Part shown: positions 15,008 through 38,719 of the stretch, in pieces
Layout: each line of letters begins with the position of its first letter
How positions within the stretch are numbered: position 1 is the stretch's first letter
IMG/VR virus record: IMGVR_UViG_3300020204_004241
Span: 4,709 to 68,708 of that record
Length of the DNA: 64,000 bases
Strand: one strand, 5' to 3'
Origin: a virus
The notes under the pieces: model-generated
Seen by the model: the letters and a program-made list of their open reading frames with translations, nothing else
Database searches by the model: none
What the model was told of the DNA's origin: nothing
Position numbers and translations under genes: made by a program

Positions 15008-15039
15008 AAAAGGAAAAGCCCCCGAGTTTCCCCGGGGGC
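15008..15039 (-). terminator. Intrinsic terminator after the major capsid gene
   Basis: Minus strand GCCCCCGGG-GAAA-CTCGGGGGC then TTTTCCTTTT. Confidence 0.85.
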
Positions 15040-15062
15040 CAGTCCTTTGAGCCTTTGCAGGA

Positions 15063-16509: not shown

Positions 16510-16731
16510 TCAGAGGATTTCAGTATTTGTTTGTTCGTCTAATTCCTGGTCATCAGGGGTATTTTCTTGACTCATCTGCTCTTCTTCAGGGGTTTCCGTA
16601 TATTCCCCATCTTCGTCATCAACAAAAATATTTTGTAACAACGACTTTACAAAAGCCCGTTTGTCGTCGTCAGAGGCAGTTTTGAGCCCTTCGGGGACTG
16701 GGGCAACGGTCATTCGCATCTCATTCATCAC
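16510..16731 (-). CDS. Small acidic hypothetical protein
   Basis: Overlaps the upstream ORF; D/E-rich tail. Confidence 0.55.
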   Translation of the reverse strand: MMNEMRMTVAPVPEGLKTASDDDKRAFVKSLLQNIFVDDEDGEYTETPEEEQMSQENTPDDQELDEQTNTEIL

Positions 16732-16987
16732 TGGTCAGCACCTCGTCAATAGCGGCTTCCCGCTCTTCGTCACTGATGTATTCGCCGGCGATCTCCAGTG
16801 CCCGGTCCCGATTCCGCTCGAATCCGTCCATGTAATCCCCCAATTCATCCTGGGTCATTCCATACTCTTCGGGGTCCATATCTTCCGGCGGAGAATCAAT
16901 CAAGCCATAAATATCCGCGTAGTTAAATTCTTTTTCTTCGTTGTCGAAGGTGTCAGACTGAATGTGGTAGGCAAATGTAGGTCTCAT
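16721..16987 (-). CDS. Small acidic hypothetical protein following the 1566-aa gene
   Basis: AGGAG SD; strongly acidic. Confidence 0.65.
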   Translation of the reverse strand: MRPTFAYHIQSDTFDNEEKEFNYADIYGLIDSPPEDMDPEEYGMTQDELGDYMDGFERNRDRALEIAGEYISDEEREAAIDEVLTSDE

Positions 16988-17002
16988 GCAGTTCTCCTGG
17001 CC

Positions 17003-20000
17003 TTAAACCTTTTCGACAATCGGGATCGGGCCCTTAAATAGCGGCCGGCCACGACTGTCCTTCATGACGCTTAGGATCATTTGGATTCTGTCCTGTACCG
17101 ACATTTTGGACATCTTAGTGATGTCCGTGTCCACACCACGGGCCTTGAGGAACTCAACAATTCCCCCACCCCAATTTCCGAATTCGGCCTTTCCATATGT
17201 AGCGGTGCGCAGGTAGCCCAACATTTCATGACGGTCATCAAGCGAAAACTCTGACCGACCTGACGAAATAGCATCTGCTAATTCTCTTGACGCCGCCAGG
17301 GCTTCTGTCTTGTTGCCTGGCAGCCATTCACGTCGCGCCAGTTCCCACAGAACGCTTTGCATTGCTCGGGGATGCTGGGTGAAGTCCTCTCCAGTCAACT
17401 GCTTCCACTCTTCAGCAACATTCATGATTGCCGCCGAAACTAGTCCATATCCTCGGCCGTGACCGAGACTTTCAAGACTATTGAATAGAACGTCGGTTTC
17501 GTTGAATGCCCCGTCATTACGTCTGGTTTTTTGTGATATCGCCGGCAGGGCGAAACCGGCAACAGCCATCCATGTGTCGTTGGTTATGTCCCTAAAATAG
17601 GAGTCCATTGGATTGTTGAGGTTATTGTAGAACGACCTGACCTTGCTCTCGTCGCCAAGCAAATTAGAAATCATTGACGACATGAATGCCGCATGCTCGG
17701 GTGAATCAACATCACCAGCAAGGGCGGCCAGTCGATCTCCGTCCCGCAGCATTTGAATAGCCTTGATGTCATTCACCAAGTATGCGCCAGCAGCCTTTTT
17801 CTTTCCTCTAATCGGATTGGCTTTGCCGGTTGCAGGGTCTGGGTTGAGGTCCAACTCCATCAATGGTCCTTCGCTACCATCAATGTACTTCATACCATTT
17901 ACTGATGCGTGTGCCCTATGAGCAACTGCAACCTCAAAGTTTGACATACCCTGAATTCGCTTGCCAGTAAATTGCTGTGCCAATTGATCTGCGTCAAGGC
18001 CGGCAATAGACCGGAAGAATTCCATGTCATTTTCTAGTGACTTAAGTTGGTACTTAAGGGCTGCGATAGTTCCCTCGCGACGCTTCTGCAATGCCTTGGA
18101 ACCCTGGTTGCGCTGCTTACCTAATTTTTCAAGGCGGCGCCGTAGTTCATTAGCGGCTGCGCTGCTGCTGTTAGTCACCTGATTCCAGTTTTTGCCGCCG
18201 CCCGATGCGCGAGCCTTCATGATTCCTTGGGCCATCGCCTTGGCGACCTCATCGCTAACCTCAAAATCTGGGTCAGCAATCATCTTGGCCATATGCTCCC
18301 CAAGCACAACATTCGAGTCCCATGGCAGTTGGGGAGAGATTGTTGCCATTGCGGCCGCCACCAGACTTGGATGAATATCTGTTTCTGCGGCAATTGACCC
18401 AATGTATTCATTGGCTACTGGGTACCAATGCTTGGCGCGTGCGCGGAACTCCTTGTCGGCTGGCGAGTCATACTGAGCCAGAAGCCGCAACATGTTGTCT
18501 TTGATGTAGTCATTGATCTGCATTACCGCATCATCAATTTGCTTCAACTGATCGGCGGAATAGTCCTTATCACCGGCCTTTAGGATTGGCACCGGCTCAA
18601 CGTGACGAAGGCCAGGCACGCCTCCGATCATTGCATTAACCATCGCTGCTTTTTGTCCTGGCGTGTAGTTGCGTCCTCCAACTTTATCCTGGCCGGCAAG
18701 GCGTGATACCTGTCCGCTGGGATCAGTCTTTCGTGTGCGGCGCACACGGATGTCCGTAGTCGGCCGTGATGGTGAGTAGGTGCTGCCCGCTTGCTCAGCG
18801 CCGGTATCAATAAAAGCCCCATTCATATCACGATCAGCGAGACGATCCATGTCAAGTACTGACGCCACGCCGCGACCTCGGCCGATATTCGTGACGGAGT
18901 CAAGGGACTGCTCGGACTTGTCGTAAACATCCGCAATATCGAAGGTCACAGTACCGGTAGCATCATCATATACGGCATTGATTACTGTGCCGATCGAGCC
19001 ACTCTTCACTGATGTGATTTCATCAATGTTGTCAGAAAGCCAACGGAACACACCTTCTTCGCCGTCCAGGGTTAGTGCGTCGTTCTCATCAAAGATGTCA
19101 TCCGCATCAAATGTGACAGCCACGTTTCGCGGGACCGCATAGGTGTTGTCAAGTCCGGCTCCCATAATTTGGATAGACCGCATACTTGACTCAAGGTCGT
19201 CAATTTCCTGACGAAGTTTAAGGAGTTTTGCGGTCTGAAGTTTAGACCAAACTGACTGACCCTTTGCGTTGGTTAGTGCCAGGATTTGGTCGAGTTCATC
19301 AGTTGTTACTGACGACAGGTCACGATCTCCCAGGCGAGACGAAAGCGCTTTCCGCGATGCCGTATCAAACTTTTTAATTGCTTCAAGTCTGTCGGCAGTG
19401 CGGGTCCGCGGATTGATTTTGCGGAAGACATCCTTCCGGTATCCGATTGAACTCCTGCCACCCTCGGTGAGCCGGCTGGCCACCACTCCCTGCCGGGCGA
19501 TTTGTGCCGCCTGAGCATTCGTAATCCGGCGAGTTTCAGGGATGGCGTCGAAAGCATCTTGCGAAACCCGCTGAGCAATTACACGAACAGCACCGGTCGG
19601 GTCATTGCATCCTTCAAGTTTCCAGTTCGTGAACTGCCCTCCGTTGATTGTTGTTGGAGGGCAACGAAGCATTCCATCTTCGTCAACAAGGGCTCCACCT
19701 CGTTTGGCGATTTCCTGACTGATGGTTCGGAGTTTTGCGCCGCCCCTACGCTTGGCTGCCTTGAACTCCACCAGATGCTGGTCAAAAGACTTAGTTGCCT
19801 CAGACCAGTATTCACCGAAGCCTTTTAAATTATCGACCACTCCAGGCATCATCACCCGGTGGATGAGGGACTTCTCTCGCTTCTTCCACGGATGACCTTC
19901 CGGGAGTAGATCGTTGTCGGTGACATAACTGGGGTTACTGGGCTGCCCATTTGACAGAATCTGAAGGAAGGCATTTACTCGCCCCATCGCCCACTGGTTG

Positions 20001-21703
20001 CGTGGCATTCCAGACTTCTGGGAGCGCGAAGACGAACCTCCGCCACGACGGTAAACAGACTTGAGGGCCCTGAGGTTGACGTACGACCAGTTCGGGTTGC
20101 CCGCCTTTTGCATGCGCTCGTTGTGCAACTTGACCTTGTCACTGAGCGAGCGCAGGACTGCTTCATTCAGTTCTACTGAAATGGCATCAGAAGTAGGTAA
20201 GGCGTTCTTCTTGCGATTCAACTTGCTGACAGCAATGGCTACGCGGCGCACAAAGTTCTTGTCGCGCTCGGCGTTACGCCGGCGAGCCAATGGACTAGAG
20301 CCCATCCGCAGGCGGTAGTCGGATTCATTAGTGCATGGCATCCAGGCTTCTCCACCATCGTCTGAGCGATAACGGCGAATTCCAATGCAGCCGAGTTGGC
20401 GCGACCGAACGCGGGCCGAATCTGGCGACGTGAACACATCTGGGTCAGTCTTGCGGATTCGGCGCTCAGCCTTTTCTTCGACTGGCTTTTCCTCAGTTAT
20501 CGGGCCACCGACAACCCATGCCCGGCAGGTGCGCTTCGCGGCACACTTGAAGTCGAAGGCTTCGCAGTAGCCAAGTTCGCCCACGGCATCAATGGCATCC
20601 CACTCATCGGTACGCTCACCACCGGTGACGCCTTGCTCGATGCAGTCCTTCATCTTGTCTGTGACAATGAACAGTGCGCAGTTCCCGCACCGCTGCTTCT
20701 TGGCGGTAGCAACATCAACATCCCACTCATCAGCAAGTTTTGACCAATAGGCGGTGTTCTTTTCATTCGGATTCAGTGGGCCGTAAGACGCACTGTCGAT
20801 CGCCTTTTTGCGGTTGCGCAGGTTGACGGCAATGTCTTTGGTGGCTGTCGGGCAGGCAGACTCAGCCTTTTCGTTTTGCTCGATCCAGTCGATAAAGTCC
20901 GACAACTGCATCTCGGTGAGGTTTTCTACGAAATCCTCGTACTCACCGTCGTCGGCCTTGCCAGAGCGGTACTTTCCGCCACGCTTTTTGTATTCGCGGA
21001 CCAGCCAGGCGTTTGCGTAGGCAGATGGGTAGACATCAAACTTTCGTTTCGCCTCCTCCTTGACCCGGGCATATAGTTCCGGGTTAGTGGGGATGGCGGC
21101 CTTCTCCTCAAGGGCAGATTCGTCGTCCTTCTTTTTGGTTGGAACATAGATCGGCTTTTTGTCAACCCGCGTCTCGGTCGACTCTGCTCGACGCTTTCTG
21201 GTGACCGCGTCACGAATTTCTTCTGCCGTCATTGAACGCGCTCGTGAAGCCGGCACACACTTCGGGTACTTACCCTTGTCGGCATCGTCCCGCCCGCATG
21301 GCTCGAATCCGCCGCCCTTCTTCGGGCGCGAGATGTCTACCCAGCGTTCCTTGAACCATTGAGTGAGCGACTTTTGCAAAGCCGCCGAGACAAGACCTCC
21401 ATCTGCGAGTGTGTCAATGCCAAGGATGGGCCTTTCGCTAAGTTGCTCCCAGCCAATTGGCTTCTTTCCGCGACGCTTCCGCTTACGAATTTCAGCCGAC
21501 TTACCCTGCGAGCACGGAAGACACTCATCGTCTTTTTCATCTAGGGAATTGATTTGGTCGAGGATGCGCGTTAGTTCTTCGTGTGATTCACAGGGCATCC
21601 ATGCGCCATCGACTTCATGGGCACCGCTGCATCCAAGCCGGCGTGACATGCGCATAGCCTGAGCCCTGTTTGGGCGCAGAACATCATCGTCTTCGTTGTT
21701 CAT
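17003..21703 (-). CDS. 1566-aa multimodule head-region protein (small Cys-rich modules plus C-terminal DUF7178/glycosylase-like domain)
   Basis: Two LGCxG...WMPC repeats; WFKERWVD..CGR..YPKCVP; YPSAYAN; RCGNC...GYC..FDFKCAAKRTC; VYRRG..WAMGRVNAF; RCPP..GGQF; WY...ISPQ..W..N...KVRSFY...TNDTWM...QSVLW. Confidence 0.75.
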   Translation of the reverse strand: MNNEDDDVLRPNRAQAMRMSRRLGCSGAHEVDGAWMPCESHEELTRILDQINSLDEKDDECLPCSQGKSAEIRKRKRRGKKPIGWEQLSERPILGIDTLADGGLVSAALQKSLTQWFKERWVDISRPKKGGGFEPCGRDDADKGKYPKCVPASRARSMTAEEIRDAVTRKRRAESTETRVDKKPIYVPTKKKDDESALEEKAAIPTNPELYARVKEEAKRKFDVYPSAYANAWLVREYKKRGGKYRSGKADDGEYEDFVENLTEMQLSDFIDWIEQNEKAESACPTATKDIAVNLRNRKKAIDSASYGPLNPNEKNTAYWSKLADEWDVDVATAKKQRCGNCALFIVTDKMKDCIEQGVTGGERTDEWDAIDAVGELGYCEAFDFKCAAKRTCRAWVVGGPITEEKPVEEKAERRIRKTDPDVFTSPDSARVRSRQLGCIGIRRYRSDDGGEAWMPCTNESDYRLRMGSSPLARRRNAERDKNFVRRVAIAVSKLNRKKNALPTSDAISVELNEAVLRSLSDKVKLHNERMQKAGNPNWSYVNLRALKSVYRRGGGSSSRSQKSGMPRNQWAMGRVNAFLQILSNGQPSNPSYVTDNDLLPEGHPWKKREKSLIHRVMMPGVVDNLKGFGEYWSEATKSFDQHLVEFKAAKRRGGAKLRTISQEIAKRGGALVDEDGMLRCPPTTINGGQFTNWKLEGCNDPTGAVRVIAQRVSQDAFDAIPETRRITNAQAAQIARQGVVASRLTEGGRSSIGYRKDVFRKINPRTRTADRLEAIKKFDTASRKALSSRLGDRDLSSVTTDELDQILALTNAKGQSVWSKLQTAKLLKLRQEIDDLESSMRSIQIMGAGLDNTYAVPRNVAVTFDADDIFDENDALTLDGEEGVFRWLSDNIDEITSVKSGSIGTVINAVYDDATGTVTFDIADVYDKSEQSLDSVTNIGRGRGVASVLDMDRLADRDMNGAFIDTGAEQAGSTYSPSRPTTDIRVRRTRKTDPSGQVSRLAGQDKVGGRNYTPGQKAAMVNAMIGGVPGLRHVEPVPILKAGDKDYSADQLKQIDDAVMQINDYIKDNMLRLLAQYDSPADKEFRARAKHWYPVANEYIGSIAAETDIHPSLVAAAMATISPQLPWDSNVVLGEHMAKMIADPDFEVSDEVAKAMAQGIMKARASGGGKNWNQVTNSSSAAANELRRRLEKLGKQRNQGSKALQKRREGTIAALKYQLKSLENDMEFFRSIAGLDADQLAQQFTGKRIQGMSNFEVAVAHRAHASVNGMKYIDGSEGPLMELDLNPDPATGKANPIRGKKKAAGAYLVNDIKAIQMLRDGDRLAALAGDVDSPEHAAFMSSMISNLLGDESKVRSFYNNLNNPMDSYFRDITNDTWMAVAGFALPAISQKTRRNDGAFNETDVLFNSLESLGHGRGYGLVSAAIMNVAEEWKQLTGEDFTQHPRAMQSVLWELARREWLPGNKTEALAASRELADAISSGRSEFSLDDRHEMLGYLRTATYGKAEFGNWGGGIVEFLKARGVDTDITKMSKMSVQDRIQMILSVMKDSRGRPLFKGPIPIVEKV

Positions 21704-21996
21704 TTGCTGCCCTTACGCTTGCGCGGTGCCTTTGTTTTCCCTGGATCAGTATTGTCCTCTGGGATACCCAGAACTCCATCGTCCTTCAGTTCTTGATACA
21801 TCTCCCGGAACTTCTCACGATTTTTTGGCTGCGAGCAGTACCAGATTGTTGACCAGTAAATGGCATCCCGTTCAGCGCCAGTTTCATCGCTGGCCAGGGT
21901 TTCTGCGTATTGCACAATTCGGCTGCGTTCTTCCCCGGAATCGACGTATTTGTAAAAGGCGTTTCGGATGTTTTGCAGTTGCTTCTCATCAAACAT
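21700..21996 (-). CDS. Hypothetical protein
   Basis: Overlaps both neighbouring genes (translational coupling). Confidence 0.65.
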   Translation of the reverse strand: MFDEKQLQNIRNAFYKYVDSGEERSRIVQYAETLASDETGAERDAIYWSTIWYCSQPKNREKFREMYQELKDDGVLGIPEDNTDPGKTKAPRKRKGSK

Positions 21997-22300
21997 TTTT
22001 GAGCCACCTGTTTGTCATTCTCTCAACATCCTCAGCCCTTGGGTCGGCGCTATTTGGGTCCCATAGTGAAGGCGCGAGATTCTCATTAATAGCAGGCTTC
22101 CAGTATGGGTTCTGGGAGATGGCGATATGTAGTGGAAGCGTCAAGCGCTTTTTGACGCGATTCTTTTTTGCCCCAGGGCTGGGGTCATACCGATAAATGA
22201 ATCCCATTGCCGGCCCATTGAGGTAGCCAGTCATGTATAACTCTTCATATTGACCAAGCGAATTAGGGTCAGTTCGGGCGATCAGAACTTCTTTTCTCAC
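21989..22300 (-). CDS. Hypothetical protein following the 2603-aa gene
   Basis: GTGA overlap with the giant gene's stop. Confidence 0.65.
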   Translation of the reverse strand: MRKEVLIARTDPNSLGQYEELYMTGYLNGPAMGFIYRYDPSPGAKKNRVKKRLTLPLHIAISQNPYWKPAINENLAPSLWDPNSADPRAEDVERMTNRWLKNV

Positions 22301-25300
22301 GGCTGGGCCTCGGTTTGCATTCTAGCGATGATCGCATCTACGCTATCAACAATTCGCTGGGCCTGAGCGCGACGATCTTCGGTGCTTTCGACATTTAGCA
22401 TGTCCTGAATGTAGGAGTATAGCCTACCAAGAGAGTAGTCATTATCCCATTCTTTTTCAGGGTCCCCGCCGGTCTCGGCATTCATTGTGTCTCCGAAGAA
22501 TTCCTTGACCGCACGGGCTACGGCTGAGCCGGCCAATAGTTCCGTGTCGTAGGTATTCGGATCAAGGGACGGGAGCATCTCGAATACTCGGTCCAGGGCA
22601 GGACTCTCGTATTCGTTGTCAACATTGAATGGCTTGCGGTAGTTAGCAAAGTTGCTCTCAACCTCTTCCAATCCGTCACGATCAAGTGTCACGGCCGGAC
22701 GAACTGGTCCGATCCGTGGTGTGCCGGCTTCTTCCTGTCGCGCTCTACCACCGACGCGACTACGTCGGCGTGCCGCGCTTCGTGCTGCACGTTCTGCTCG
22801 CCCTGCCTCGAACTCAGCAATTGCTTCCTCGTTCCGCTGCTGCTCTTCTTCGCTAACAACCGCCTGAGACCCGATCCCGATTTCCTCCTGCCGCTGGTTC
22901 AAATCATCTTCGTCCCCAGTTGCAGGTCCCTCAACCTGTGCTTCGCGACGGTTTCGCGGACGAGGAGAGCGCGGTGTCGCGGGCCTTCGTCGGGTTCGTG
23001 GTGCTGGGGTTTCTTCTTCGTCGGCGTCTAGGTTTTCTGATTCAGCAAGAATCGCATCATCGTTCGGATCATCTGGGTCTGGATTGCTTCGTCTACGTGC
23101 TCGCTCCTCTGCCTGTGCGGCCCTTGTTCGTGCAGCCTCAGCAGCCCTATTCATTTCTGCACTGTTTGGCGCAAGTTCATCAACACGGTTACGGGCAGTC
23201 GGATAGGCGAGCAATCGATCGGGTGGGATCGGCAAGCCAGTTGGAGTGAGTGTTTCTGACTGCTGTGTACCAAACACTGTAGACGCAAATCCTTCTGACG
23301 AGCCATACTTGCCGTCATAAATGCGCTTCAGAGCGCTGTCAATTTCCTGCTGCTCTAATTCAATTCCAATAACGCGCACTCTGGCTTGCTCAATGTCAGC
23401 AGCGTCGGTGTCGCCAAGTTCATCATCGCTACTAAGGACGGTGCCCCGGTTCTCGCTAAGATCATCAACTTCTCGTCGTGCCATTTCAAGTCGTGCATCA
23501 TTGGCGGTTCGTCGGTCACGAAGAGCGGCCTCGGCCTCAACAAGAAACGCAGCGGCCTCTGCTTCCGTGCCGGGGTTTTCCGGATCGATATACCATTCGC
23601 CTGGGTCACGGGTGAATCGTTGCCCAGTTGGGCCAACTGCTTCTTCCCCGCCCACGGCGCGGCGAGGCCTGTAGTTGGCATTTATTCTAGGAGTACCACT
23701 GGGGCCAGAGTACTTTTGGGCGGGGGCCTGTGGAACTTCATCTATAGCCTCAGACCCAAGAGGTGCTTCGGGCGCTTCGCCGCGCTCTGTTGCGAGGGCG
23801 TCCGCAAGACCCGTGACGTTTTCGGCAGTTGCTACCGCGTCTGCCGCTGCGTCAACTTCTTCAACAACCTCGGGCGTTGTATCGCCAATTACTTCTGGGG
23901 TTGCCTCTTCGGCTGATGGGGCCTGTTCTGGCTCACCGACAATACGGAGCGGAATGCCACGATTCTCCAGGATTCTAGTAACTTCATCGCGATAACTCTG
24001 CGGATGGAGTTCCCATGTCATGCGGTCAACTTCAGCAGCCTCAATGTCGCTTGGCTCAAGTGGACTCTCTGGGATAAATGTATTTCTAAAGTCACCATCT
24101 GGGAATTGTCGCGAATCGCGGAAGCCTTGCCAGTTGACTGTTTCCGGTAGGAAGTATCCGTTTTGCTGCAATGGAAAGATAGTCCCACGTGTGTTGCCAA
24201 AGTTCATCACCGGCTGTCCCGACACGTCGTTCTTTAGCACAAGGCGAATGCCACGATTTTCTGTTCCGTCTGGCGTAATTCTGGCCAACTGCGTCTCTAC
24301 CGAGCCGGCGATGAACGAGTTTGACAATAGCGGGCCATTTAAACCGGCTCCCCCGAAGTTGGGTGCCCTCAGTTGGTCTAAGTTGCGAATGTCAACCGTT
24401 GGCCGGCCACGCAATGACTGCAAAGCCTCAGCAACGTCGTTGGGACCAAGACCAGAGAAGTTGCGAAGATTAAGTTTAAATTCATAAAGAACTTCAGCAA
24501 CAGTATCTCCAACTCGCTCAGCATCCATAACTGCCATCAGGCCTTCACCAGTTAGGTTTGGGGGGGATGCCAGTCTGATGTCTGCTTCAACCGCTTCAGA
24601 AATTCTGCGGGCCAGGTTCGTCCCAGTAAGTTCAAAAGGAAGATCGGTGTTACTTAAATCGACGCGGAGACTTTGCAAAAGTTCCTCTAGCGCCGGGGTT
24701 TGGCTAGAGCGCGTCAGCGCATAGAAGGGCTCAAGATTATCGTCAACGCGGCCGGCATCTCGCATGTTCGGAGGTAGTGATCGAAGATCAGACACGATGC
24801 CATTGGCCAAGTCAATCGCGCTTGAGTTTTCAAGATTATCTGCGAAGCCACGATCTGGGTCAACAGATGGAAGTGCATTGAGTGCCTGTGTTGCCCCCTG
24901 CGCCCGTCGTGATATTGGCTTAGCGCGAACAGCCAGAGGCTTGCCGAGAACCTCTTCAAGGTCCATTCTTCCACTAAACGAGAGTTTCTTGAACCAGCGC
25001 TTGATTTCGGCCTCTCGCCGCCCGCGTTCAACCGGGTCAGAAATTGCTGCTGCGTCATCGATCGCCATAATTGCTTCGATGTGCGACGGGGTCGAGGGGT
25101 CAATTGGCTGATTTTCGTAAGCGGAGTTGCCTGTCGCTGTATCTAATTCATCAACGATCCACTGCCAAGCATTCGCTTGTTCCTGGTTGCGAATTAGGGA
25201 TGGGCGTCCTCTTTGCCAATTTATGAGTTCGTCAGTCATCGCAATTTTAAGTTCAGTTACCTGGTATATTCTCGTAACCCTAAATCCGAGGCGAGGCCAA

Positions 25301-28300
25301 ACGTATGGGCCGTCTGATGTTGCGCCCACTCCAACCTTGTTATGACCAGCCAATTGTAAGTGGCGTAAGGCATGAGTATTAAATACCGTGGCGACGCCGG
25401 CGCCTTTATAGGTTTCGCCCTGGTCTTCCAAGTACATGTTAGCGTGTTCAATATAACTCGGTTGACCATCAACATCACGGGTAATGTAACGAGAGAACCT
25501 TCCGAGTGTTCCTTCTTCCCCGGTTGTCAGATTTCTAAATCTTACTACTCCGGAACAGTTGGAATTGTAAACACTAACGCCGTCCGTGAAGACTTCGATC
25601 TCTTCGATTCGCGGGCTGCCGTCGCTATTGAATAGTTTTTCGCCAGTTGATCGATCTCGCCTGTGAACTTTCATCTTCACTGGCGGCATTGTGTAGGCCA
25701 ACTCGCGAAGTTCTCTGTCGCGGATGTCTATTTGATCATCGATGTCACCACGCTCTAGGTCGTCGGTCGCCCCGCGACGAGCATCAACAAGCCCACGAAT
25801 TTCTGCTACAAGTTGCGCTGCCCTGGAGTCTGGGTCTTCCCACGGAAGAGGTTCGGTTTCGCCCAATCCGTATGCTTGACGCAACTGCGTATCTGTTTGC
25901 TTACGACGGCGCAGGTGTGTTTCTTCTACAAGTGAGCGGATTCTTTCCTCAACATTATCGGAAAACGGCTGAACGTCAAATTGTGAAGGGCTCGTAATTG
26001 TGCGTTCGCCGCTGTCGTGCAGGGATGGTGTGTTGCCAGAAAATTCGGGATTATCCAAATCCCGTACCTGGGTGGCGTCCATCAAACCAGAAGCCGGCGC
26101 CGAGTCGCGCAGGCCACGCCCCTCTTCCGTCGCCCTAATTAGCGCAAGGCGCTGGGCAACCCACTCTCGGGCCTCGAAGTCGTGCATGTCGGCAACCCTG
26201 CTGCGTCCCTGGCTAGTCGGACCAACATTGGGCGAGGACACTTCAACATCACGGATGAATCCATCAGGGTCGTCGATGAGTGCTCGGACAGCGGCATTGA
26301 CGTTTTTGTCCAGTTGACGTGCGGTGTTCGCTAGTTCGATAGCCAGTCCATCGTCATACCCAGTTTCGGACATGCGCTGGAAAATTGGCGCATAAAACTG
26401 ATCAAAGAAGTTGCTCTCTAGTTGCCCTTCTGTTGGATCATAGTAATACAGCGCATTGCTGTCAAGAACACCTTCTGGCACGCGCGGACGTCCGTCAAAG
26501 TATGTGCTGTCGAAAATGTTGCGTAGGCGCCTAGCAACCAGGTCCTTCACGTCATCGGGGGTGAAGTCTCCTGATTGGGCCAAATTGAGAAGTGCATTAG
26601 CATCATCCCTAAGCATTTCAATCTGGCCCGGGAACAGGCTTGACATGTCCTCGTAGGTGCGGTCAATCTCGCTTAGTTCGCGGCGGGCAAAATCTTCCAA
26701 TTGATCTGCGTCAAGGTCTGGGCCGACTTCAATAAGGGCCTGCACAAAGACCATCCGCTGCTGGGTAAGCGTTCTGTCCCCAAACCCTGGGTGCTCTGGG
26801 TTTTCGAACGTAAGCCACGGATGCCTGTTTAGGACGTCAGTTCTTACAGCATCTCTAATAAACTCTTGAGCGCTAGTATCGGTTTCATTTGGCGTAATAT
26901 CATCTACTTCAAAACGACCTTCGAAGAATGAGGGTTCGAGCCTACGAGCAGTGTAGTAATTCGCCAGATCGACATCGTCTTTCACTTGGCCTCTAACCAG
27001 CGCATCCAGTTTGTCCATCGATGTTTCTTCTGAGATTTCCCCCCTGTCGAATGCCTCAGCCAGTGCCTCGGCACGCTGCATTCTGTACTCTCGGCGCTCT
27101 GCATGAACTTCGCTAATATTCCGGTCACCTGGTTCAAACTGGCGCCACGCCCGTGACGATGCAACATAATCCTTGTCTTCTGGATCGCCTTCCAGAGCCA
27201 GGAATCCCAATGGCCTTGTCTGCAGTTCGGCAGTTTTTTCGTCGACACTGTCGGCAAATTCCCGTCGGCCGAAAAGGCCGAACTGGCCTTCGCGACGAAT
27301 GCGATCAACAACAACTCCGACAGCCTCTGCTGCCGCATCTTCATCAGGAGTTCCTACTGCCTTGTCGGCTCGCCGCACGGCGGCATCAAATTCTTTTTCA
27401 AGTTGCCGGCGCAGGTCTGTTCCGACAATTCCCTCTTCTTGAACAATTTCTTCGGCAACTCGAATGCGCTCGTCTGCCTCTACGCCAGCCTGAGTGGTTG
27501 GGTTGGTTACTGGCGGGCTAATATCATCCGCCTCTGGGCGCGCCGGGATGACGTCACTTGAAGTGCCATCCTCGTTATCAAGCAAGCGATCAGAAACGGT
27601 ACCACGGTTTCGGAAGGTTGTATATGTTTCGCCTTCCACCGGGCGGAAACCAGATGGAATCTTTTCTTGAGGCACTGAGATGAACTCGTCGAAGTCGGCT
27701 TCATTTGCCGGCGCCTTGTATGGCCGGTTGCCGCTGTTATTGCCACCAAATCGTCCTGGAGGGAATCGTGATACGGAGCCGGTCGTACGTTCGCCCGGAC
27801 CAATCGTTCGACGAGTATTGGCGTTTTCAATCATGCGAAGCCCGCGCCACGCAAGTTCACGGCGCTCCAGCGACTCATTCTCGTCTACCATGATGTTGTA
27901 CAAGTTCTCGAACATGTCGTCGAGCGTCTTGTCATCAATGACATCCCAGTTGCGGTAGCCGCCGTAGCCAAACTCATCGCGAATGCGTCGACCGACTCGT
28001 TGCCAGCGCGGTTGGGGGAGTTCACCGCCACGTCGATAATCCCTGAGGTACTCAAGGAGTTCCCCGACAGTCATCTCTGTTTCTTCGTCCGGGAAGCCTT
28101 CCTCCCGTCCGGTTTCGTCATCACGTCTTGCGGTTCCACGTGAACGACCGAATGAACCCGGCCGCCCTCGTCCGCCAGCCTCAGTAGTGTCTCCAGGGGT
28201 CCTAGGACGCTCGGCGCCAGCCGGACTTGTTGGGGCCGGCTCATCTCCGCGACGGCGACGGCGCTTGGGCTTTGCCTCGCCCTCTGGTGCTCCCTCTGGC

Positions 28301-30108: not shown

Positions 30109-32189
30109 TCTGACATTCCCACAAACTCAAATAGGCGGGCCTTGGATGCTCGGAGCGTACTGAGCCGACGATTAAACACGTCCTTCATCAGTTCCATGCG
30201 CACTTGCTCTGGCTTTGTCAGTTTACCATCGACAAGGAGTCGCTTCATGTACTCCTCCCAGCGAAAATCCTCGGCTCGCTTAATTGTGTCGTTGTACATT
30301 TCGAGCAATACTTGACGCTGACGCTGGGACACATTGGTGAAAATGCCCTTGTAGGCCGCGCCATTTCTGTCATACCAGGCGCCCAGAACATCGACTCGAC
30401 GGGATCGCAGTTCGTCCGCCGACAGTCCAGCGCCACCCGCCAATGAGTCGCCCAAAGAGAAGGTGCGCTTTGATTTTCCGACGCTTGCGGTGGCCAGGTT
30501 TTCTAGAGTTCGTCCACGATTGTCAAGCAAAAAGTCCGACATGGCCAAGACCATAAGGTCCTTCATATTTGCCGATTTGATCGGATCAGCAGAAATGGCG
30601 CCGTCAATAATATTGCGCGGGTCTTCGATAAACGAATCACGCATTTCGTTCTTTCCGGAACCAACGACCTTTCCGGCCTTGAGGCCGAGGAAGTTCTGAA
30701 TATCCGACGACAGGCGACGGGACAAGAACTCGAAGTCATTTTTGGCTGGAGTTTTAATCCACTTATTCCCGCGCCCACCGTCATACAACGTGGTGCGATT
30801 CTTGCCTTTTGATTCCTTGTACTTCTTGGAGCCAGCAACAGCACGCGCAATAAGTTCAGGGGCAATATCAGCAAGCGAGCCACCCCCATTGAGGTGGGCG
30901 ATGGCATCCTCTAGCGAGATGATTTCCTTCTCTGGGGCGGTGCTGGCCGACTGCTCAGCAACACGCTCGATCTTCCAGGGCTCGGCCCCCTCCTGCCGGC
31001 CTGGAGCATCGACGGACATGAACTTCTCATAGACCCATCGGCGCACTTGTGCAGTTTCTGCGCCACGGCTGGCGGTTATCAGATCATTGGCATTATCTAC
31101 GTCTGCGATATTCTCGCGGTAAATAAGCGAGCCGTTCGACATGTCTGCGATTTCGCGAAGTCGATCTCCTCCGTCAAATGGCTTCGGCTGAGTGCGACTA
31201 ATCTTCTGGGCCCACAAGCGCCCAAGGCGTCGACGATCTCCGTTAGTCAGTTCCTTAGTTGCCTCTAGCGTAATAGTTCCTCCGCCGGGGAGGACGTTGT
31301 GTAGTGAGCGAACCTTGTTCTGCCAGATGAGCGGCGCGTGATCTGAGCCAATGTTGTTCGGGCTTGGCACTCCGGCGAAGAATGACGCGCCCTCCATGTC
31401 CAGGCTTCGTCGTACTTGCGCCAAGGACCGCGAGGTCACTGCCGGCGCCAGAATCAAGCCATCGCGGCGGGCCATAAATCGAGCATTGGGGTTTGTCTCC
31501 AGAACGGACACAATTCCGTCAAATGCACGCTTCAATTTCTTGGGGTCTGGGCCGGCGACTCGTGGAATCTGTGCCTGTCGCTGAATCTGAATCGTCTGCG
31601 ATGTGAGTGCTCCTCCGCCTAGTGCGCGCATCATTGCCTCAGACATTGGCGCGCGCAGGAACGGACGGTTCAGGTCAAGCAGTCCGCGAAGCCTTGAGTT
31701 GGGGAGTTCGAAGAGAATACGACCACAATTGGCAAATCCACTTGAAGCGAACCGCCCGCCGTTTTCGTAACCGGCAGGACAGCGTAGTTGTGCTCGGTAA
31801 GCACGTCGGGCAGCGCCAGTGATGGCACCTCCGCCGCCGATTCCTCCCAGCCCTCGGCCCAGTCGTCCGCCCCCACCGCCACCAGGGGTAATCAGGCCGA
31901 ATGCAGCAGCGCGTGGGCTCGTGTACCGAGAAAGGTTTCCAGGGGTAAGTAGCGAACCGACAGCCTGAATACGCCGACCAACAGCAGAGTCATCCCTTAG
32001 GACGCCAGCCTTTACTTGCTGCTCTTCAAGGAGCCGCATGGTGATGATCGCCTTGTAGTTGATGACATCGCGGGTAGGCAATCCTGCCTGCTTAAACAGG
32101 TGCGGAGTTGCCTCGTGCGCGAAGATACGACGAACTACAAGCGGCTCGTTGCCGAGCACAGCGTCTTCCCGCTCCTGATCATCCCCCAT
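30105..32189 (-). CDS. 694-aa head-region protein with C-terminal HipA/PI3-4 kinase-like domain, probably inactive
   Basis: RCPAGYENGGRF; KWIK...LSSDIQNFLGL...DFLLDNRGRTLENL compared with canonical DxxxxNxDRHxxN. Confidence 0.6.
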   Translation of the reverse strand: MGDDQEREDAVLGNEPLVVRRIFAHEATPHLFKQAGLPTRDVINYKAIITMRLLEEQQVKAGVLRDDSAVGRRIQAVGSLLTPGNLSRYTSPRAAAFGLITPGGGGGGRLGRGLGGIGGGGAITGAARRAYRAQLRCPAGYENGGRFASSGFANCGRILFELPNSRLRGLLDLNRPFLRAPMSEAMMRALGGGALTSQTIQIQRQAQIPRVAGPDPKKLKRAFDGIVSVLETNPNARFMARRDGLILAPAVTSRSLAQVRRSLDMEGASFFAGVPSPNNIGSDHAPLIWQNKVRSLHNVLPGGGTITLEATKELTNGDRRRLGRLWAQKISRTQPKPFDGGDRLREIADMSNGSLIYRENIADVDNANDLITASRGAETAQVRRWVYEKFMSVDAPGRQEGAEPWKIERVAEQSASTAPEKEIISLEDAIAHLNGGGSLADIAPELIARAVAGSKKYKESKGKNRTTLYDGGRGNKWIKTPAKNDFEFLSRRLSSDIQNFLGLKAGKVVGSGKNEMRDSFIEDPRNIIDGAISADPIKSANMKDLMVLAMSDFLLDNRGRTLENLATASVGKSKRTFSLGDSLAGGAGLSADELRSRRVDVLGAWYDRNGAAYKGIFTNVSQRQRQVLLEMYNDTIKRAEDFRWEEYMKRLLVDGKLTKPEQVRMELMKDVFNRRLSTLRASKARLFEFVGMSE

Positions 32190-32201
32190 AGGGACTCCTA
32201 C

Positions 32202-33944
32202 TTAGTTGAGTGGTTCTTCGTCCAGGGCCATCAACTCAAACTCCATGAGTTTGGCCATCAGTTCTGGATCATCATTGACCGCTACAGCAGACTCGGACTT
32301 CTCTCCGTCGGCCACGGGCTTGGACCATTCCTCGGGAATCATGTCTTCAAGGCCGAGTTCCTTGGCGCGCTTGGTGATGTGGCGCTTAGCCGCCTCAACA
32401 TCCTTAGCACGGCCGTGAGCCATGATGGCATTACGCAGGTCCTCAGAGTCCTTGATTGGGAAGGAGCCGTCTTCCATGGCCTCGCCACGCTTTGACATCT
32501 CTTCACGCTGATCAATTCCGTATGCGCGCTTGAGAGCGATCTCGGCAATTTCCGAATCGATCTCCATCGCCTGAACCGCGTCGTACTCGTCGTAGCCGAG
32601 AACCTGTCCATCGAGGCTCACGTAGACATCGTACGAGCGACCATCGACGCCATTGATCTCAACTGCGTAGGCCTCACTGCCCTCGAACTCGTCTGCATCA
32701 ACCGACACGATGTCGCCCTCAATTGACTTGACGGCGATGAGGCCGGCATCCTCGAAGGAGATAATTCCGCCATAGTGCTCTGCTGACTTAACGTCGAGCA
32801 CCGAGGAATCGAGTTCGTGCCAGCCGCGACAACGAGCATCCTGGCCATCGAAAACGGCCTCGATGACCGTATCGTCACGCTTTACCTGAACGATGAAGAC
32901 ATCCTTGACGTCGGAGTATCCACCCGAGAGGGTCTTGCCGGCGAACATACCTTCAGCAAGTCCCTGAACCTCGATGAGGGTTGGCAGGCCCTGCTCTGGA
33001 GCACATCCGCCGGGGCAGGCCGCGCAAGGGCTAGCGGAGCCGGCCAGCATCTTCTGCTGGAATCCGCAGACATAAGCATCCTCGTCCCAGTCAGCGCTCT
33101 TAACACCCATGGTCTGCATACGGGCAGCGCGAGCAGCGCGACGACGCTTCATTTCTTCTTCGGCCATGCGCTGCATTTCGGACATGTCGCCCTCGCTCAT
33201 GCCCATGCCACCCTTTTCGGGCATCTCATCGCTCATCATCTTTGTACCGCACTGCGAGCAGAACTTCGCGCCGGGAGCATTCTTGTACGAACACTTGGGG
33301 CATACGCCCTTCACGTCAGACTCTTCCTGCATTTCTTCTTCTTCGGGCTTGTCCGCCATGGCCGCAGGCATCATGCCGTTGGGCATCATGTTTTCCTTCC
33401 TGCGCATACGGTTGCGCAAGGCCCGGAACATGCCCTTCTCATATTCGTCGAGCATCTCGTCGTCTTCAATCATTTCGCCGTTCTCGCCCTTACGACGACG
33501 ACGGCCCATGAGCATGCGGAGCAGGCCCTTCTCTTCCTCGGTCAAAAGATTCTCGTCGTACTCTTCTTCCGACATTTTCTCTTCATCCTCACCGGGGCCC
33601 ATGCCATACTTCTGCTGAACAGCCATAGCGCCGCACGCGCCGCAGACCTTGGAACCGCTTTCGTAGCCGCACTCACTAGCCTCAAGGCCCTTGGCGCACG
33701 CAACTACGTCGCCTTCGGCGCTGATCTTTACTACTGCTTTTTCGTCCATTTGGTCGTTCTCCTTGTATTGCATAGCCCTTGTTGTGCATGCATTTGGTGA
33801 TGAACATCCAGAGCAGGGTGACATTCGTTTGTCGCCTGTAACCATACACTGGAACTTCGGTTGAATTTTGTGGATTGCTTTGACAGCATCGTACTCGACC
33901 GAATTTATATCATCCGCAATAAACGCACTCTCCTGACTAGTCAT
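32202..33944 (-). CDS. 580-aa head-region protein: Zn-ribbon/Cys motifs, acidic Met-rich linker, PepSY-like domain, small C-terminal head-associated domain
   Basis: CPKCSYKNAPGAKFCSQCG and other CxxC motifs; ISFEDAGLIA...YAVEI...YDVYVSLDGQVL; GSFPIKDSEDLRNAI...KRAKELG. Confidence 0.7.
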   Translation of the reverse strand: MTSQESAFIADDINSVEYDAVKAIHKIQPKFQCMVTGDKRMSPCSGCSSPNACTTRAMQYKENDQMDEKAVVKISAEGDVVACAKGLEASECGYESGSKVCGACGAMAVQQKYGMGPGEDEEKMSEEEYDENLLTEEEKGLLRMLMGRRRRKGENGEMIEDDEMLDEYEKGMFRALRNRMRRKENMMPNGMMPAAMADKPEEEEMQEESDVKGVCPKCSYKNAPGAKFCSQCGTKMMSDEMPEKGGMGMSEGDMSEMQRMAEEEMKRRRAARAARMQTMGVKSADWDEDAYVCGFQQKMLAGSASPCAACPGGCAPEQGLPTLIEVQGLAEGMFAGKTLSGGYSDVKDVFIVQVKRDDTVIEAVFDGQDARCRGWHELDSSVLDVKSAEHYGGIISFEDAGLIAVKSIEGDIVSVDADEFEGSEAYAVEINGVDGRSYDVYVSLDGQVLGYDEYDAVQAMEIDSEIAEIALKRAYGIDQREEMSKRGEAMEDGSFPIKDSEDLRNAIMAHGRAKDVEAAKRHITKRAKELGLEDMIPEEWSKPVADGEKSESAVAVNDDPELMAKLMEFELMALDEEPLN

Positions 33945-36103
33945 TACTTTTGGGTGATCTTGAGGCTTGCTGTTTGAGCCGACTTACTACCATAAGCAGC
34001 ACTAAACGATTTTAGAGCATTGTTAATAGCCTTTTCGGCATCTACCGAAAGTGTTTCCTTGGCAAAAACCAGGCCATCCTCGGTCGCCTTGCAGTCAACC
34101 TTGTGATGTGAGAGCACCGGGTCGATGTGATTCTTGATGGCGAACAGGTCGGAAATCGGCGCCTTAATGATGGGCGCACTCTTCTCCTCCTTCGAGGCTT
34201 CAGAAATTACCTGGTTAAGAAGGTCAGCAATTTGTCGTAGCCGGACCATATTGCGGGTGGAAATTATTCGCCCGGCCTTGAACAAAATCTCGTCGTCATC
34301 GGACTTCATCCCGCCGCAACCGCAGCCACATCCACCCGAAGACATCGGGGGCTTCATGTATTCGTACTCGACCTCATTGCCGTCATCGTCGTCCCCAACG
34401 TGAACCCAGTTGGAGTCGTCGCCAATGAACTGCATGAACTCTGGCTCCATTTCCATGAATTCCTTAAGCACCATGTTGGCAAACTTGATGTCGGTATCTG
34501 TTACCTCATCTAGGTTGTCGTTCTCGTATCCCTCGACAAACGGGTCAGCCTTTTTGGGATTGGCAAGCCGTGACATCCGCTCATTAAATTGCCTGTCAGA
34601 AATAATCGAGCCGCGAACAACTCCGCGGATTTTACGACGGCAGTTCTTCATGCCCGGGTGGTGACAGCCCTCATTGGGCCATAGTCCGGTTGTCTCGTGG
34701 TGTAGCCACGCACAGATGCGCTCAAGTGGGTACAATTCTGGGTGGTCGGCCAGAATGACTAGGCAACGACGGAATCCGCCGGGCTTACGCATGATGGGCC
34801 GCCAGTAGCGGAGCAGACGCTCCAGGTTGCCACGGCGAGGTCCATACCCACGAAGAATGTCGCCAGTAATATTTTCCTGGGGAATGACATCCACTGGAGC
34901 CGGAGCCTTGGCTTCACCATTCGGCCACATTCCACCAACAGTTCCGCCCGCTGCCGGCGTGTAAACAGTTTGAGCCTGAACCTTCTCTGGCTCACCGAGC
35001 ATGTACTTCTGAATATCGTCCTCATAGTGGTACGACACGCGGAATGTGTTCATTTGGTCATCTTCCGAGATGTGATCAAAGATCACAATGTTCTCGTCCA
35101 TGACGCGAATACGGACGCTGCCCTTGAACTTTTCGACTAGCGCCTGAGCAAGTTCTTCTGGGTCCTTGGACTCCGCCGGCGATGCGTTGCCATAGCCAGA
35201 GTCGTCATCCTCGTAGGGCAGGCCCTTCTTCTTGCGGTCATTGAGTTTCTTGATCTCCTCCCGGACCAAGTCCTTCATGTGCCCTTCCCCACGGCTGCCA
35301 ACCGCCAACCACTTTATCTGGGCGATTACGCCGGGAAGACGGAAGTCCTGCTCGTGGCGGGCGACCCATGCCTCTCTTAATTCGAGCGCTGCGATTTGAG
35401 CGTCGGTTGTTGCTACACCATTTTGCTTGGCAATTTTTGTCAGTATTTCGTACTGAGCGTTGCCCTTGATGTTTCCGCCCTTGCGCCAAAGTTCCGGATA
35501 CTCCGTTCGGACCATCTCGGCAAAACCGCGGTCAAACATCGGCCACTTGCTTTTGCCGAAAGAGGTTACTTTATCTTCAGCCTTATCGGCCTTGATTGAA
35601 ATTGTAGCGGTTAACTGGTTGGCGCCATGAAGCACTGGCGAGACTTCGTAAAGTTCCACCTCACGCAGGATGTTTGCCTGACGAGACGAGTCGTAGATCG
35701 AGTCAAGCGTCTTGTAGCCAATCGACCATTCTTGGTCTGGGCCGAAGAAAGCAACGTCAGCAAAGGCTTGCCGCCCGCGCTCGCTCTTGAGGTTGAACTG
35801 AACGCGAGCATAGAGCCCACCAACGCCGACGTTGCGCATCTTGGCTGGTAGGCGAGGGTCATTGGGCTTGACTTCGTAGATTTCAAGGACCTTGCCGATG
35901 GGACTATTCCAGTCATGACCCCAAACGACTCGGGGATTACGGCGCTTCAGGCTTCCGTCGAAAGCCCCAGGAACGATGATGTCGCCAACAGCGTCCTTAT
36001 TACCGAAGGCGGCGACGAAGCACTCAACAATGCCCTGCGCTTCATCGATGCTGATTTGACCAGTGTTGGCCTTGAACTCATAGTCGCGAGTCTGCGTAGG
36101 CAT
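33944..36103 (-). CDS. HK97-type prohead protease (S78) with ~550-aa C-terminal extension
   Basis: FGNKDAVGDIIVPGAF, WGHDW..PIG, WSIGY, ELYEVSPVLHGAN; GGAG SD. Confidence 0.92.
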   Translation of the reverse strand: MPTQTRDYEFKANTGQISIDEAQGIVECFVAAFGNKDAVGDIIVPGAFDGSLKRRNPRVVWGHDWNSPIGKVLEIYEVKPNDPRLPAKMRNVGVGGLYARVQFNLKSERGRQAFADVAFFGPDQEWSIGYKTLDSIYDSSRQANILREVELYEVSPVLHGANQLTATISIKADKAEDKVTSFGKSKWPMFDRGFAEMVRTEYPELWRKGGNIKGNAQYEILTKIAKQNGVATTDAQIAALELREAWVARHEQDFRLPGVIAQIKWLAVGSRGEGHMKDLVREEIKKLNDRKKKGLPYEDDDSGYGNASPAESKDPEELAQALVEKFKGSVRIRVMDENIVIFDHISEDDQMNTFRVSYHYEDDIQKYMLGEPEKVQAQTVYTPAAGGTVGGMWPNGEAKAPAPVDVIPQENITGDILRGYGPRRGNLERLLRYWRPIMRKPGGFRRCLVILADHPELYPLERICAWLHHETTGLWPNEGCHHPGMKNCRRKIRGVVRGSIISDRQFNERMSRLANPKKADPFVEGYENDNLDEVTDTDIKFANMVLKEFMEMEPEFMQFIGDDSNWVHVGDDDDGNEVEYEYMKPPMSSGGCGCGCGGMKSDDDEILFKAGRIISTRNMVRLRQIADLLNQVISEASKEEKSAPIIKAPISDLFAIKNHIDPVLSHHKVDCKATEDGLVFAKETLSVDAEKAINNALKSFSAAYGSKSAQTASLKITQK

Positions 36104-38656: not shown

Positions 38657-38719
38657 TGCTGCGTTCTCCGTGGGGTAAGCACCCTAACATCATCATCCTA
38701 CACACAACGGAGCCCCCCA

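Follow-up and report, generated by a model that had tools for sequence, protein, structure and literature searches.

Giant proteins encoded between the prohead protease and capsid genes of an uncultured phage lineage: candidates for packaging in the head

The DNA considered here is a 64-kb stretch (the window; positions 4,709 to 68,708) of the 68.7-kb IMG/VR record IMGVR_UViG_3300020204_004241, whose estimated completeness of 46% points to a source genome of roughly 150 kb. The source is an uncultured, myovirus-like large tailed phage, and between its prohead protease and major capsid genes stand eight open reading frames (ORFs), two of which encode giant proteins of 2603 and 1566 amino acids (aa). 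This giant-protein block is an ancestral trait of a large uncultured lineage and not a local insertion. We regard it as reasonably probable that the block is a lineage-specific form of the head-packaged polyvalent proteins with new modules for entry into the head, and its genomic context favours the block proteins being packaged there and delivered with the DNA. Head packaging is favoured because the block lies in the same operon as the genes for portal, protease and capsid, because in four of five long relatives the protease domain is itself fused to proteins of thousands of residues, and because the portal protein ends in a MuF domain. Gene order, conservation, fusions and domain matches are matters of observation, and it is with these that we begin.

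The head operon is compact and runs on the minus strand from 38.7 to 15.0 kb, in the order portal-MuF, S78 protease, block ORFs and capsid gene. Block proteins are named by their length in aa.

38453..38656, minus strand: small protein of 67 aa, directly 5' of the portal gene; no Pfam family
36186..38453, minus strand: portal with C-terminal MuF domain, 755 aa (PF04860, E 7.2e-49, residues 63-386; PF04233, E 1.2e-11, residues 660-749)
33944..36103, minus strand: S78 prohead protease, 719 aa (PF04586, E 9.6e-14, residues 20-172)
32202..33944, minus strand: p580, acidic conserved head-module protein with a Zn-ribbon, a weak PepSY-like region and a conserved C-terminal tail
30105..32189, minus strand: p694, conserved, with an RCP handle at about residue 137 and a putative C-terminal PI3/4-kinase-like fold
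22297..30108, minus strand: p2603, with an RCP handle, a Pro/Thr-rich repeat, charged low-complexity stretches, a GNAT-like domain and a C-terminal region without assigned function
21989..22300, minus strand: p103, small ORF with a 4-nt overlap with p2603 (translationally coupled)
21700..21996, minus strand: p98, small ORF between the giants p2603 and p1566
17003..21703, minus strand: p1566, 'pre-capsid' DUF3721 ortholog plus small modules, an RCP handle and a DUF7178-containing C-terminal half
16721..16987, minus strand: p88, acidic small ORF
16510..16731, minus strand: p73, acidic small ORF
15063..16358, minus strand: HK97-fold major capsid protein, 431 aa, with an N-terminal delta-like domain (PF05065, Phage_capsid, E 4.6e-47, residues 160-429)
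15017..15040, minus strand: terminator-like hairpin ending the head operon, with a 10-bp stem, 8 G-C pairs and a T-rich tail; the top-ranked site

The portal-MuF protein also matches phrog_2662 (E 7.8e-98), and the presence of portal, S78 protease and Phage_capsid domains in one operon makes this a head module of HK97 type. Genes of the block overlap by 1-11 nt or lie 12-15 nt apart, the exception being a 151-nt gap before the capsid gene. The sole strong terminator-like hairpin on the minus strand is directly 3' of the capsid gene, and within the block terminator-like sites are not in excess (23, against 22.5 in shuffled sequence). The sizes, strand and order of the eight ORFs are exactly as in a first-pass annotation of this DNA, and we take them to be correct because of these compact junctions and the single strong terminator after the capsid gene; open frames of 7.8 and 4.7 kb cannot arise by chance. 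The flanking protease and capsid genes named in that annotation are likewise borne out by the Pfam matches given above.

Relatives of the capsid protein were found on 278 viral contigs, with 66-78% identity in the 80 related viral loci fetched. Loci were counted as informative if at least 5 kb upstream of the capsid gene was present, with ORFs counted within the available 10 kb; 51 of the 52 distinct informative loci have, on the capsid strand and 5' of the capsid gene, an ORF 800 aa or longer, and the largest upstream ORF has a median of about 1650 aa (52 loci, many of them cut by the locus edge). Five long relatives, G001 to G005, two of them complete with terminal repeats, had their portal, protease and capsid genes located and their ORFs mapped, the protease-to-capsid distance being taken from the start of the one gene to the start of the other.

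G001: record of 174 kb, protease-to-capsid distance about 45 kb, 26% of the record
G002: record of 160 kb, distance 23.6 kb, 15% of the record
G003: record of 145 kb, distance 22.7 kb, 16% of the record
G004: record of 132 kb, distance 24.8 kb, 19% of the record
G005: incomplete record of 114 kb, distance 16.1 kb

The 26% share is that of a complete genome, G001, whose gap holds ORFs of 3190, 499, 852, 1748, 687, 1466 and 5345 aa, the last being the upper limit for a single ORF. That the block had been 'inserted' between two adjacent genes, as first annotated, is contradicted by an arrangement that is lineage-wide, as seen in 51 of 52 loci and five long relatives. A check suggested with that annotation, whether related phages have a variable cargo block here, comes out positive in part: the gap varies from 16 to 45 kb with differing ORFs, while p580, p694 and the N-terminus of p1566 are conserved. 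By sequence the block appears to have two layers, a conserved backbone (p580, p694 and the head of p1566) and a variable load, and the view of all eight ORFs as cargo does not extend to p580, p694 and the N-terminal modules of p1566, which belong to the lineage's conserved backbone. Among the small ORFs, p98 has a homologue at the same relative place in G005 (38% identity, E 1e-9), and no homologues of p103, p88 or p73 were found in 82 loci and the five long relatives. Homologues of the 67-aa protein precede the portal gene in four of the five long relatives (E 7e-11 to 3e-8). At the portal loci of G002 and G004 (L096, L097) the match to the window portal-MuF protein meets in-frame stops near residues 680-690; the portals there are of 681-691 aa and the MuF part is apparently absent or separate.

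The best contextual argument for entry of block proteins into the head is provided by the protease, to which, in relatives, thousands of residues are fused. In the window the S78 domain occupies residues 1 to ~178 and is followed by a 540-aa C-terminal extension; it matches TIGR01543 at E 4e-14 and 53 bits, below the cut-off of 59, and was alone in having a match among 11 proteins scanned against NCBIfam. In the six genomes the domain is near-invariant for ~175 residues, up to 'SIKxD', and divergent beyond; its 'WGH' and 'EWSIGY' motifs, which presumably hold the catalytic His and Ser, are invariant. In four of the five relatives (G001-G004) proteins of 3190, 3563, 2943 and 2089 aa have it as their N-terminal domain. 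MPTase-PolyVal (PF18818, E 9e-43 and 3e-40), ArdC-N (PF08401, E 2e-24 and 1e-16) and pieces of UvrD helicase are found in the G002 and G003 fusions, with a WYL domain additionally in that of G002; sigma-70 region 4 or other helix-turn-helix (HTH) domains are present in the G001, G002 and G004 fusions, and Zeta_toxin, NUDIX and Clp_N domains in other block proteins of the relatives. A Cys/His-rich module comprising residues ~397-582 of the window protease is fused likewise in G005 and is a separate ORF of ~200 aa just 5' of the p694 homologue in G001-G004 (54-62% identity). It is established for HK97-type systems that the prohead protease acts inside the prohead, and because it works there and carries block proteins covalently, these proteins would enter the head with it.

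A second link to head genes is found in p1566, which has Pfam matches to DUF3721 (E 1.7e-14), DUF5872 (E 4.7e-13) and DUF7178 (E 1.7e-9) and whose modules comprise two of DUF3721, phrog_23735, DUF5872, a module annotated as high potential iron-sulfur protein (HiPIP), the RCP handle and DUF7178. Its DUF3721 modules head the ORF immediately 5' of the capsid gene in all five relatives, at lengths from 221 to 5345 aa. The G002 and G003 versions measure 221-239 aa and that of G005 377 aa; the 794-aa version of G004 includes a zeta-toxin kinase, and the 5345-aa one of G001 has zeta toxin, NUDIX and Clp_N. The window's version of this pre-capsid DUF3721 protein is p1566, enlarged by extra modules. 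Those in its middle, namely phrog_23735, DUF5872 and the module that some records annotate as HiPIP, exist as separate small genes in relatives as well as in aquatic phages, those of Pelagibacter and cyanobacteria among them, and in the relatives they occur on either side of the capsid gene. For residues 1040-1566 a homologue search found nothing among proteins of 289-923 aa, and the Protein Data Bank (PDB) sequence search with p1566 gave nothing useful. Two of its modules have matches elsewhere. The Cys-rich residues 283-405 (20489-20857, minus strand) are 55% identical to a 'high potential iron-sulfur protein' gene of Actinomycetia phage DSL-LC01 and recur in several spring-water phage records, with the HiPIP domain not confirmed by Pfam. 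Residues 492-613 (19865-20230, minus strand) resemble, at 33-42% identity, a stretch that coincides with the genes annotated as major capsid protein in Roseobacter phages CRP-701, CRP-821, CRP-822 and CRP-831, and this module seems to travel between head-gene contexts.

The third recurring element, here called the RCP handle, was recognized from the invariant motif RCPxG[YF]xxGGRFT...C of p694 homologues, of which a variant, [FW]RCPPxT..A.QFT[DN]...G.C, is present within an alignable stretch of ~70 residues in p2603, p1566 and relatives. The two copies in the window giants, which are brought together in alignment A3, are as follows.

29785..29985, minus strand: RCP handle of p2603, residues 42-108; 39% identical to the p1566 copy, E 4e-7
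19565..19771, minus strand: RCP handle of p1566, residues 645-713

Elsewhere the handle is present in G001_1466, G002_2204, G003_2491, G004_1744, G005_761, G005_948 and G005_1018 (each named by genome and length), so that giants bearing it occur in all five long relatives, and in a 2130-aa ORF of locus L016. A profile search restricted to proteins of 161-2000 aa returned 342 proteins at E <= 1e-3, and in each of the 120 listed of these 342 there is one RCP copy, within the first 237 residues; the bodies of such proteins have KTSC, DUF2510, PI3_PI4_kinase, DUF3626 or HTH domains. No Pfam family matches the handle region in the handle-bearing proteins scanned. We read it as a putative docking or loading element.

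What stands behind the handle in p2603 is harder to characterize. The protein has no Pfam, PHROG or NCBIfam match and no tblastn match in cultured phages, and its PDB sequence search yielded Pro-rich matches alone. It has a net charge of -127 and 3 Cys in all, two of them in the RCP handle; its residues 201-300 are rich in Pro (38) and Thr (34). Over a 361-residue query (1440-1800) its identity to a database protein of 2229 aa is 74%.

29170..29409, no strand assigned: 57-nt tandem repeat, 4.1 copies, encoding the Pro/Thr-rich linker of p2603
24931..25596, minus strand: GNAT-like domain, p2603 residues 1505-1726, from a profile match and sequence homologues

The GNAT-like domain has 93 representative proteins at E <= 1e-3, and in its relatives it is mostly the C-terminal end of proteins of 700-1100 aa; it is also present in p972, considered below, and in G005_1018 within the G005 block. 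Support for the label comes from profile A2 (12 sequences), the best PDB match of which is an N-acetyltransferase-domain protein, 9f5q_A (E 0.0035, 70 residues in the motif A/B region). The consensus K-N-x-G-F...A-A-G-F...D-G-x-Y-V-W-x-R-x-G-F would, on our reading, fit the motif A/B core, and the Atlas, a comparison by language-model features, scores 0.91 with Acetyltransf_1 in 20% of cluster members, a lead only. Pfam finds no family at the domain in the window or in 30 relatives scanned, and we use GNAT-like as a putative, profile-level label. A glycosylase-like module, also proposed in the first-pass annotation, finds no support: no glycosylase, lysozyme or transglycosylase family appears at E <= 1 in 13 block segments, nor does either giant, p2603 or p1566, have a PDB sequence match of that kind.

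The two backbone proteins are of a different character. Homologues of p580, 484-533 aa long, are directly 3' of the protease gene in all five relatives and are 50-53% identical over residues 277-577 (the family alignment, A5, has 5 of the 6 sequences). With a net charge of -50, p580 has the Zn-ribbon that had been noticed at first sight (PF13240, E 1.2e-7, residues 215-235), which sits as an insertion in the variable acidic linker of the family. The PepSY label (PF03413) is more equivocal, the window match being weak (E 0.054, 14.2 bits); among the homologues that of G002 reaches 26.5 bits against a cut-off of 24 and that of G005 20.6 bits, and nothing is seen at E <= 1e-3 in G001 and G003, so one of the six family members scanned attains the Pfam cut-off. 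The tail of p580, G-x-A-L/M-P/E-D-G-S-F/Y-P-I...D-L-x-N-A-I...G-R-A...H-I-x-K-R-A, also closes the annotated capsid maturation protease of Gordonia phage ChisanaKitsune, and for that reason p580 looks like a detached, non-catalytic half of a capsid maturation protease.

Homologues of p694 are present in 54 of 82 loci and in all five long relatives (that of G005 is shorter; that of G001 was confirmed at E 4e-75). Its only two cysteines are both in the RCP motif. When A1, the p694-family alignment of 27 members, was compared by hhalign with A4, an alignment of seven RCP-handle proteins, the result was a probability of 79.9% and E 1.4e-5 over 223 columns; three A4 members scanned match PF00454 (E 2e-7 to 5e-9) and the other four carry PF00454 as precomputed annotation. 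The Atlas places p694 next to PI3_PI4_kinase and HipA-type clusters (score 0.92). A PI3/PI4-kinase-like fold for the C-terminal half is supported at the profile level, and to that extent the 'kinase-like' of the first-pass annotation is apt. As to activity, no member of the 27 has a direct Pfam kinase match, the p694 family has 'TDQRxRxxxS' where A4 has 'GDRHxGN', so that the canonical DRHxxN kinase loop is gone, and 'PIDHS' of A4, with the metal-binding Asp, is without counterpart. Kinase activity is doubtful because of this replacement of the GDRHxGN loop by TDQRxR. There is no tblastn match to p694 in cultured phages, and a PDB search with its profile gave nothing useful. More probably p580, the Cys/His-rich protease module and p694 serve assembly or docking rather than attack.

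Two ORFs of ~1000 aa elsewhere in the window had been assigned to the same set of proteins.

2339..5395, plus strand: p1018, with DUF3626 (SopF family, PF12294, E 2.3e-8) and an HExxH region; outside the head operon
6520..9438, minus strand: p972, with a GNAT-like domain at residues 172-298 (A2 profile, E 3.4e-13) and an HExxH region; outside the head operon

The assignment holds for domain repertoire: besides the GNAT-like domain of p972 there is a match of p1018, over 375 C-terminal residues (574-948), to G005_761, a handle-bearing protein of the G005 block (E 7e-28). An HExxH motif occurs in each of the two, HELGH at residue 747 of p1018 and HEFGH at residue 675 of p972, in each case as the bare motif only. 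It does not hold for location, both being outside the head operon and p1018 on the plus strand, and neither has the RCP handle. PDB sequence searches with the two gave nothing useful. The Salmonella effector SopF is an ADP-ribosyltransferase. DUF3626 is its family, according to PMC6682159. A motif D-x-D-G-D-G...[TS]..E-R-P near the N-termini of p1018 and p972 is also inside G001_1748, G001_3190 and G004_794, and BLAST finds it in G004_2089 and G004_1298 as well. Adjoining p972, at 9448-10353 on the minus strand, is a histone-deacetylase-family gene (PF00850, E 1.9e-28), homologues of which (39-45% identity) are a few kb from the capsid gene in three related loci (L004, L012, L014).

Polyvalent proteins were predicted to be packaged and delivered, and MuF domains linked to delivered effectors, by Iyer, Burroughs, Anand, de Souza and Aravind (2017, J Bacteriol; PMC5512222). 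The block resembles them in having very large multi-domain proteins among virion genes of the portal-terminase type, its genes being between those for portal-MuF/protease and capsid with the terminase gene divergent. Where 2-15 unrelated domains are taken as the mark of such proteins, p1566 has them, and p2603 combines the RCP handle with the GNAT-like domain. The relatives carry the MPTase-PolyVal and ArdC-N pair, helicase, zeta-toxin kinase and GNAT-type modules. There are also differences. According to that paper (PMC5512222) the assemblin-like, prohead-protease-type peptidase is always C-terminal, whereas here S78 is N-terminal in proteins of 2089-3563 aa; the window giants have no Pfam polyvalent-protein (LPD/MPTase) family; the RCP handle corresponds to no Pfam family; and the block reaches 45 kb. 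Beyond Iyer et al. 2017, no paper tying a fusion of the prohead or capsid maturation protease to polyvalent proteins was found in a literature search that had supplementary files outside its scope. The Dar proteins of phage P1 (DarB and partners) are also giants thought to be borne in the head with smaller partners and delivered with the DNA, in part as described in PMC5512222, but they are encoded in a separate operon and have different domains, whereas the block genes are inside the portal-protease-capsid operon. With MuF-fused toxins the window shares a MuF-bearing portal and the logic of cargo on a head protein; the giants, however, are not on MuF and are instead fused to S78 or DUF3721 modules or bear the RCP handle.

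An actinobacterial host is hinted at since the nearest cultured capsids and portals are from actinobacterial phages (37-47% identity for the capsid, 38-45% for the portal). Some of these phages have large head-module proteins of their own, Streptomyces phage Gilgamesh a 4624-aa gp48 and Gordonia Chidieberevirus (ChisanaKitsune) a VIP2-like ADP-ribosyltransferase with a 969-aa protein. Between portal and protease, ChisanaKitsune and Cantare encode HExxH proteins of ~1000 aa, together with an RNA ligase and a VIP2-like ADP-ribosyltransferase (PF03496, E 2e-13). In Gilgamesh, Chidieberevirus and Brevibacterium Cantarevirus, though, the cargo is between portal and protease and not between protease and capsid, and Gilgamesh gp48, ChisanaKitsune gp23 and Cantare gp11 have neither an RCP handle nor BLAST similarity to block proteins. 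Just before the Gilgamesh capsid gene is gp52 (L113, 21165-23090), annotated 'hydrolase', which consists of S78 (PF04586, E 2e-9) and NUDIX (PF00293, E 5e-16). No paper on phage Gilgamesh was found in the literature. Elsewhere, the 2811-aa gp47 of phi24B is reported as a polyvalent protein detected in virions by proteomics (bioRxiv 10.64898/2026.04.10.717836), and a 1715-aa helicase protein, whose gene lies with the structural genes of Thermus phage Lalka27a, is described as virion-associated (bioRxiv 10.64898/2026.04.20.719267).

If the block proteins of this lineage are indeed head-packaged, the giants would be made late together with the head proteins, would be built into the procapsid and would then pass into the host with the DNA. 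Their enzyme-like modules would have host proteins or defences as targets: in the window the module in question would be the GNAT-like acyltransferase of p2603, and in relatives the ArdC-N/metallopeptidase, UvrD-type helicase, sigma-70 region 4 HTH, zeta-toxin kinase and NUDIX modules. Three head-entry 'tickets' can be envisaged, namely attachment of the cargo straight behind the S78 prohead protease domain, its attachment behind the small DUF3721 protein whose gene immediately precedes that of the capsid (the p1566 type), and the N-proximal two-cysteine RCP handle of ~70 residues (p2603, p1566 and the conserved p694). A bolder and more tentative extension, possible rather than probable, is that of a modular capsid-loading platform in which any polypeptide could enter the prohead by any of three interchangeable N-terminal tickets, with the handle docking on a p580/p694 core. 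Packaging, ticket function, injection and targets are inferences on our part, and several observations weigh against them. Large parts of p2603 are charged or low-complexity sequence; neither an HExxH motif nor a Pfam enzyme family is found in the window giants p2603 and p1566; and the missing kinase loop of p694 was described above. The Gilgamesh giant gp48 has neither the handle nor detectable similarity to block proteins. Sites of the simple HK97-type cut motif L-x-K-[SA] in the two giants number 0 and 1 against 0.5 and 1.3 expected and are not enriched. The bodies behind the handle, examined as 104 C-terminal parts, form just 2 single-linkage groups.

Certain signals that might have been diagnostic were sought and discarded. 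As protease-site joints in p2603 and p1566, none of L-x-K-[SA], [LIVMF]-x-K-[SAG], [LIVM]-x-E-[SAG] and [LIVMF]-x-R-[SAG] is enriched over shuffled sequences. No copy of the capsid N-arm, which might have served as a tag, is present in window or block proteins (best non-self E 0.29). A pattern of conserved handle with hypervariable body is not supported by the sample of 104 C-terminal parts and their two groups. The capsid protein itself has a conserved 'K-S-[LI]-G' junction near residue 97, at K|S-[LI]-G of which we would place its cut. The HK97 capsid is cut at K103|S104, which the window junction resembles.

It is unlikely that the giants are structural or assembly parts of the head that remain in or by the particle and lack an enzymatic role as host effectors, whether as an internal core, a scaffold, a phiKZ-like body for spooling DNA or proteins of the ejection conduit. 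Such a role would suit the positional conservation of p580, p694 and the pre-capsid DUF3721 protein across the lineage, the strong acidity of p580, which is scaffold-like and has a tail in common with an actinophage capsid protease, the absence of a canonical kinase loop from p694 and the largely low-complexity sequence of p2603; a conduit role has moreover been proposed for the virion polyvalent protein in the phi24B preprint. Yet ArdC-N, UvrD helicase, sigma-70 region 4, zeta-toxin kinase and NUDIX domains of the relatives suit the host cytoplasm and not a capsid, p2603 has its GNAT-like domain, the giants vary in size and content (16-45 kb) among genomes whose capsids are 66-78% identical, and the capsid protein has a delta-like N-terminal domain of its own. 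Less probable still is that the giants are non-virion cytoplasmic proteins, late or early, for anti-defence, takeover or replication, gathered in a recombination-tolerant gap of the head operon, a position that would then have no bearing on delivery. In favour of this, p1018 and p972 with the same repertoire are outside that operon beside nucleotide-metabolism genes, small modules of p1566 stand as genes of their own before or after the capsid gene in relatives, and cut-site and capsid-tag signals were not found, but covalent fusion to the prohead protease in four of five relatives is then hard to explain, translational coupling within the portal-to-capsid unit implies co-expression with head proteins, and the N-proximal handle is kept in 120 of the 120 listed of 342 proteins.

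As to the surroundings of the head operon, the large terminase gene is divergent (38591-40024) and is followed, on the plus strand, by a tail module of myovirus type. This encodes baseplate J-like and tail-collar domain proteins, and a 1407-aa ORF occupies the tape-measure position; a sheath-sized ORF of 499 aa in that module has no Pfam match. Between the terminase and tail genes, at 40540-42080 on the plus strand, lies a recombination pair made up of an annealing protein of the Rad52/22 family and a PD-(D/E)XK nuclease. Immediately 3' of the capsid terminator and on the same strand is a gene like those of class I S-adenosylmethionine-dependent methyltransferases (14404-14976, minus strand; PF08241, E 5e-11). 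A nucleotide-metabolism set at 434-2132 and 11858-13783 (plus strand) comprises ThyX (E 3e-51), a pyrophosphohydrolase resembling MazG and a ribonucleotide reductase of class II type (phrog_367, E 4e-144). A tRNA search found no tRNA genes in the window.

The selection of large proteins for the head is, to our knowledge, understood in only a few phages, among them T4 with its capsid-targeting sequences, P1 with Dar, and N4. That phages deliver giant proteins with their DNA is a concept already described, and the value of the present case is in its wiring at the level of a lineage, with N-terminal protease fusions that widen the published picture of polyvalent proteins. The RCP handle is a sequence-defined and testable candidate for a capsid-loading signal and, if it works as one, would be useful for engineered cargo. 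Should the loading platform be real, up to 45 kb of genes' worth of enzymes would be injected, and the sigma-like HTH and helicase modules among them could start the infection programme before phage transcription. If the block proteins are packaged, this lineage devotes an exceptional 12-26% of its genome to proteins delivered with the DNA.

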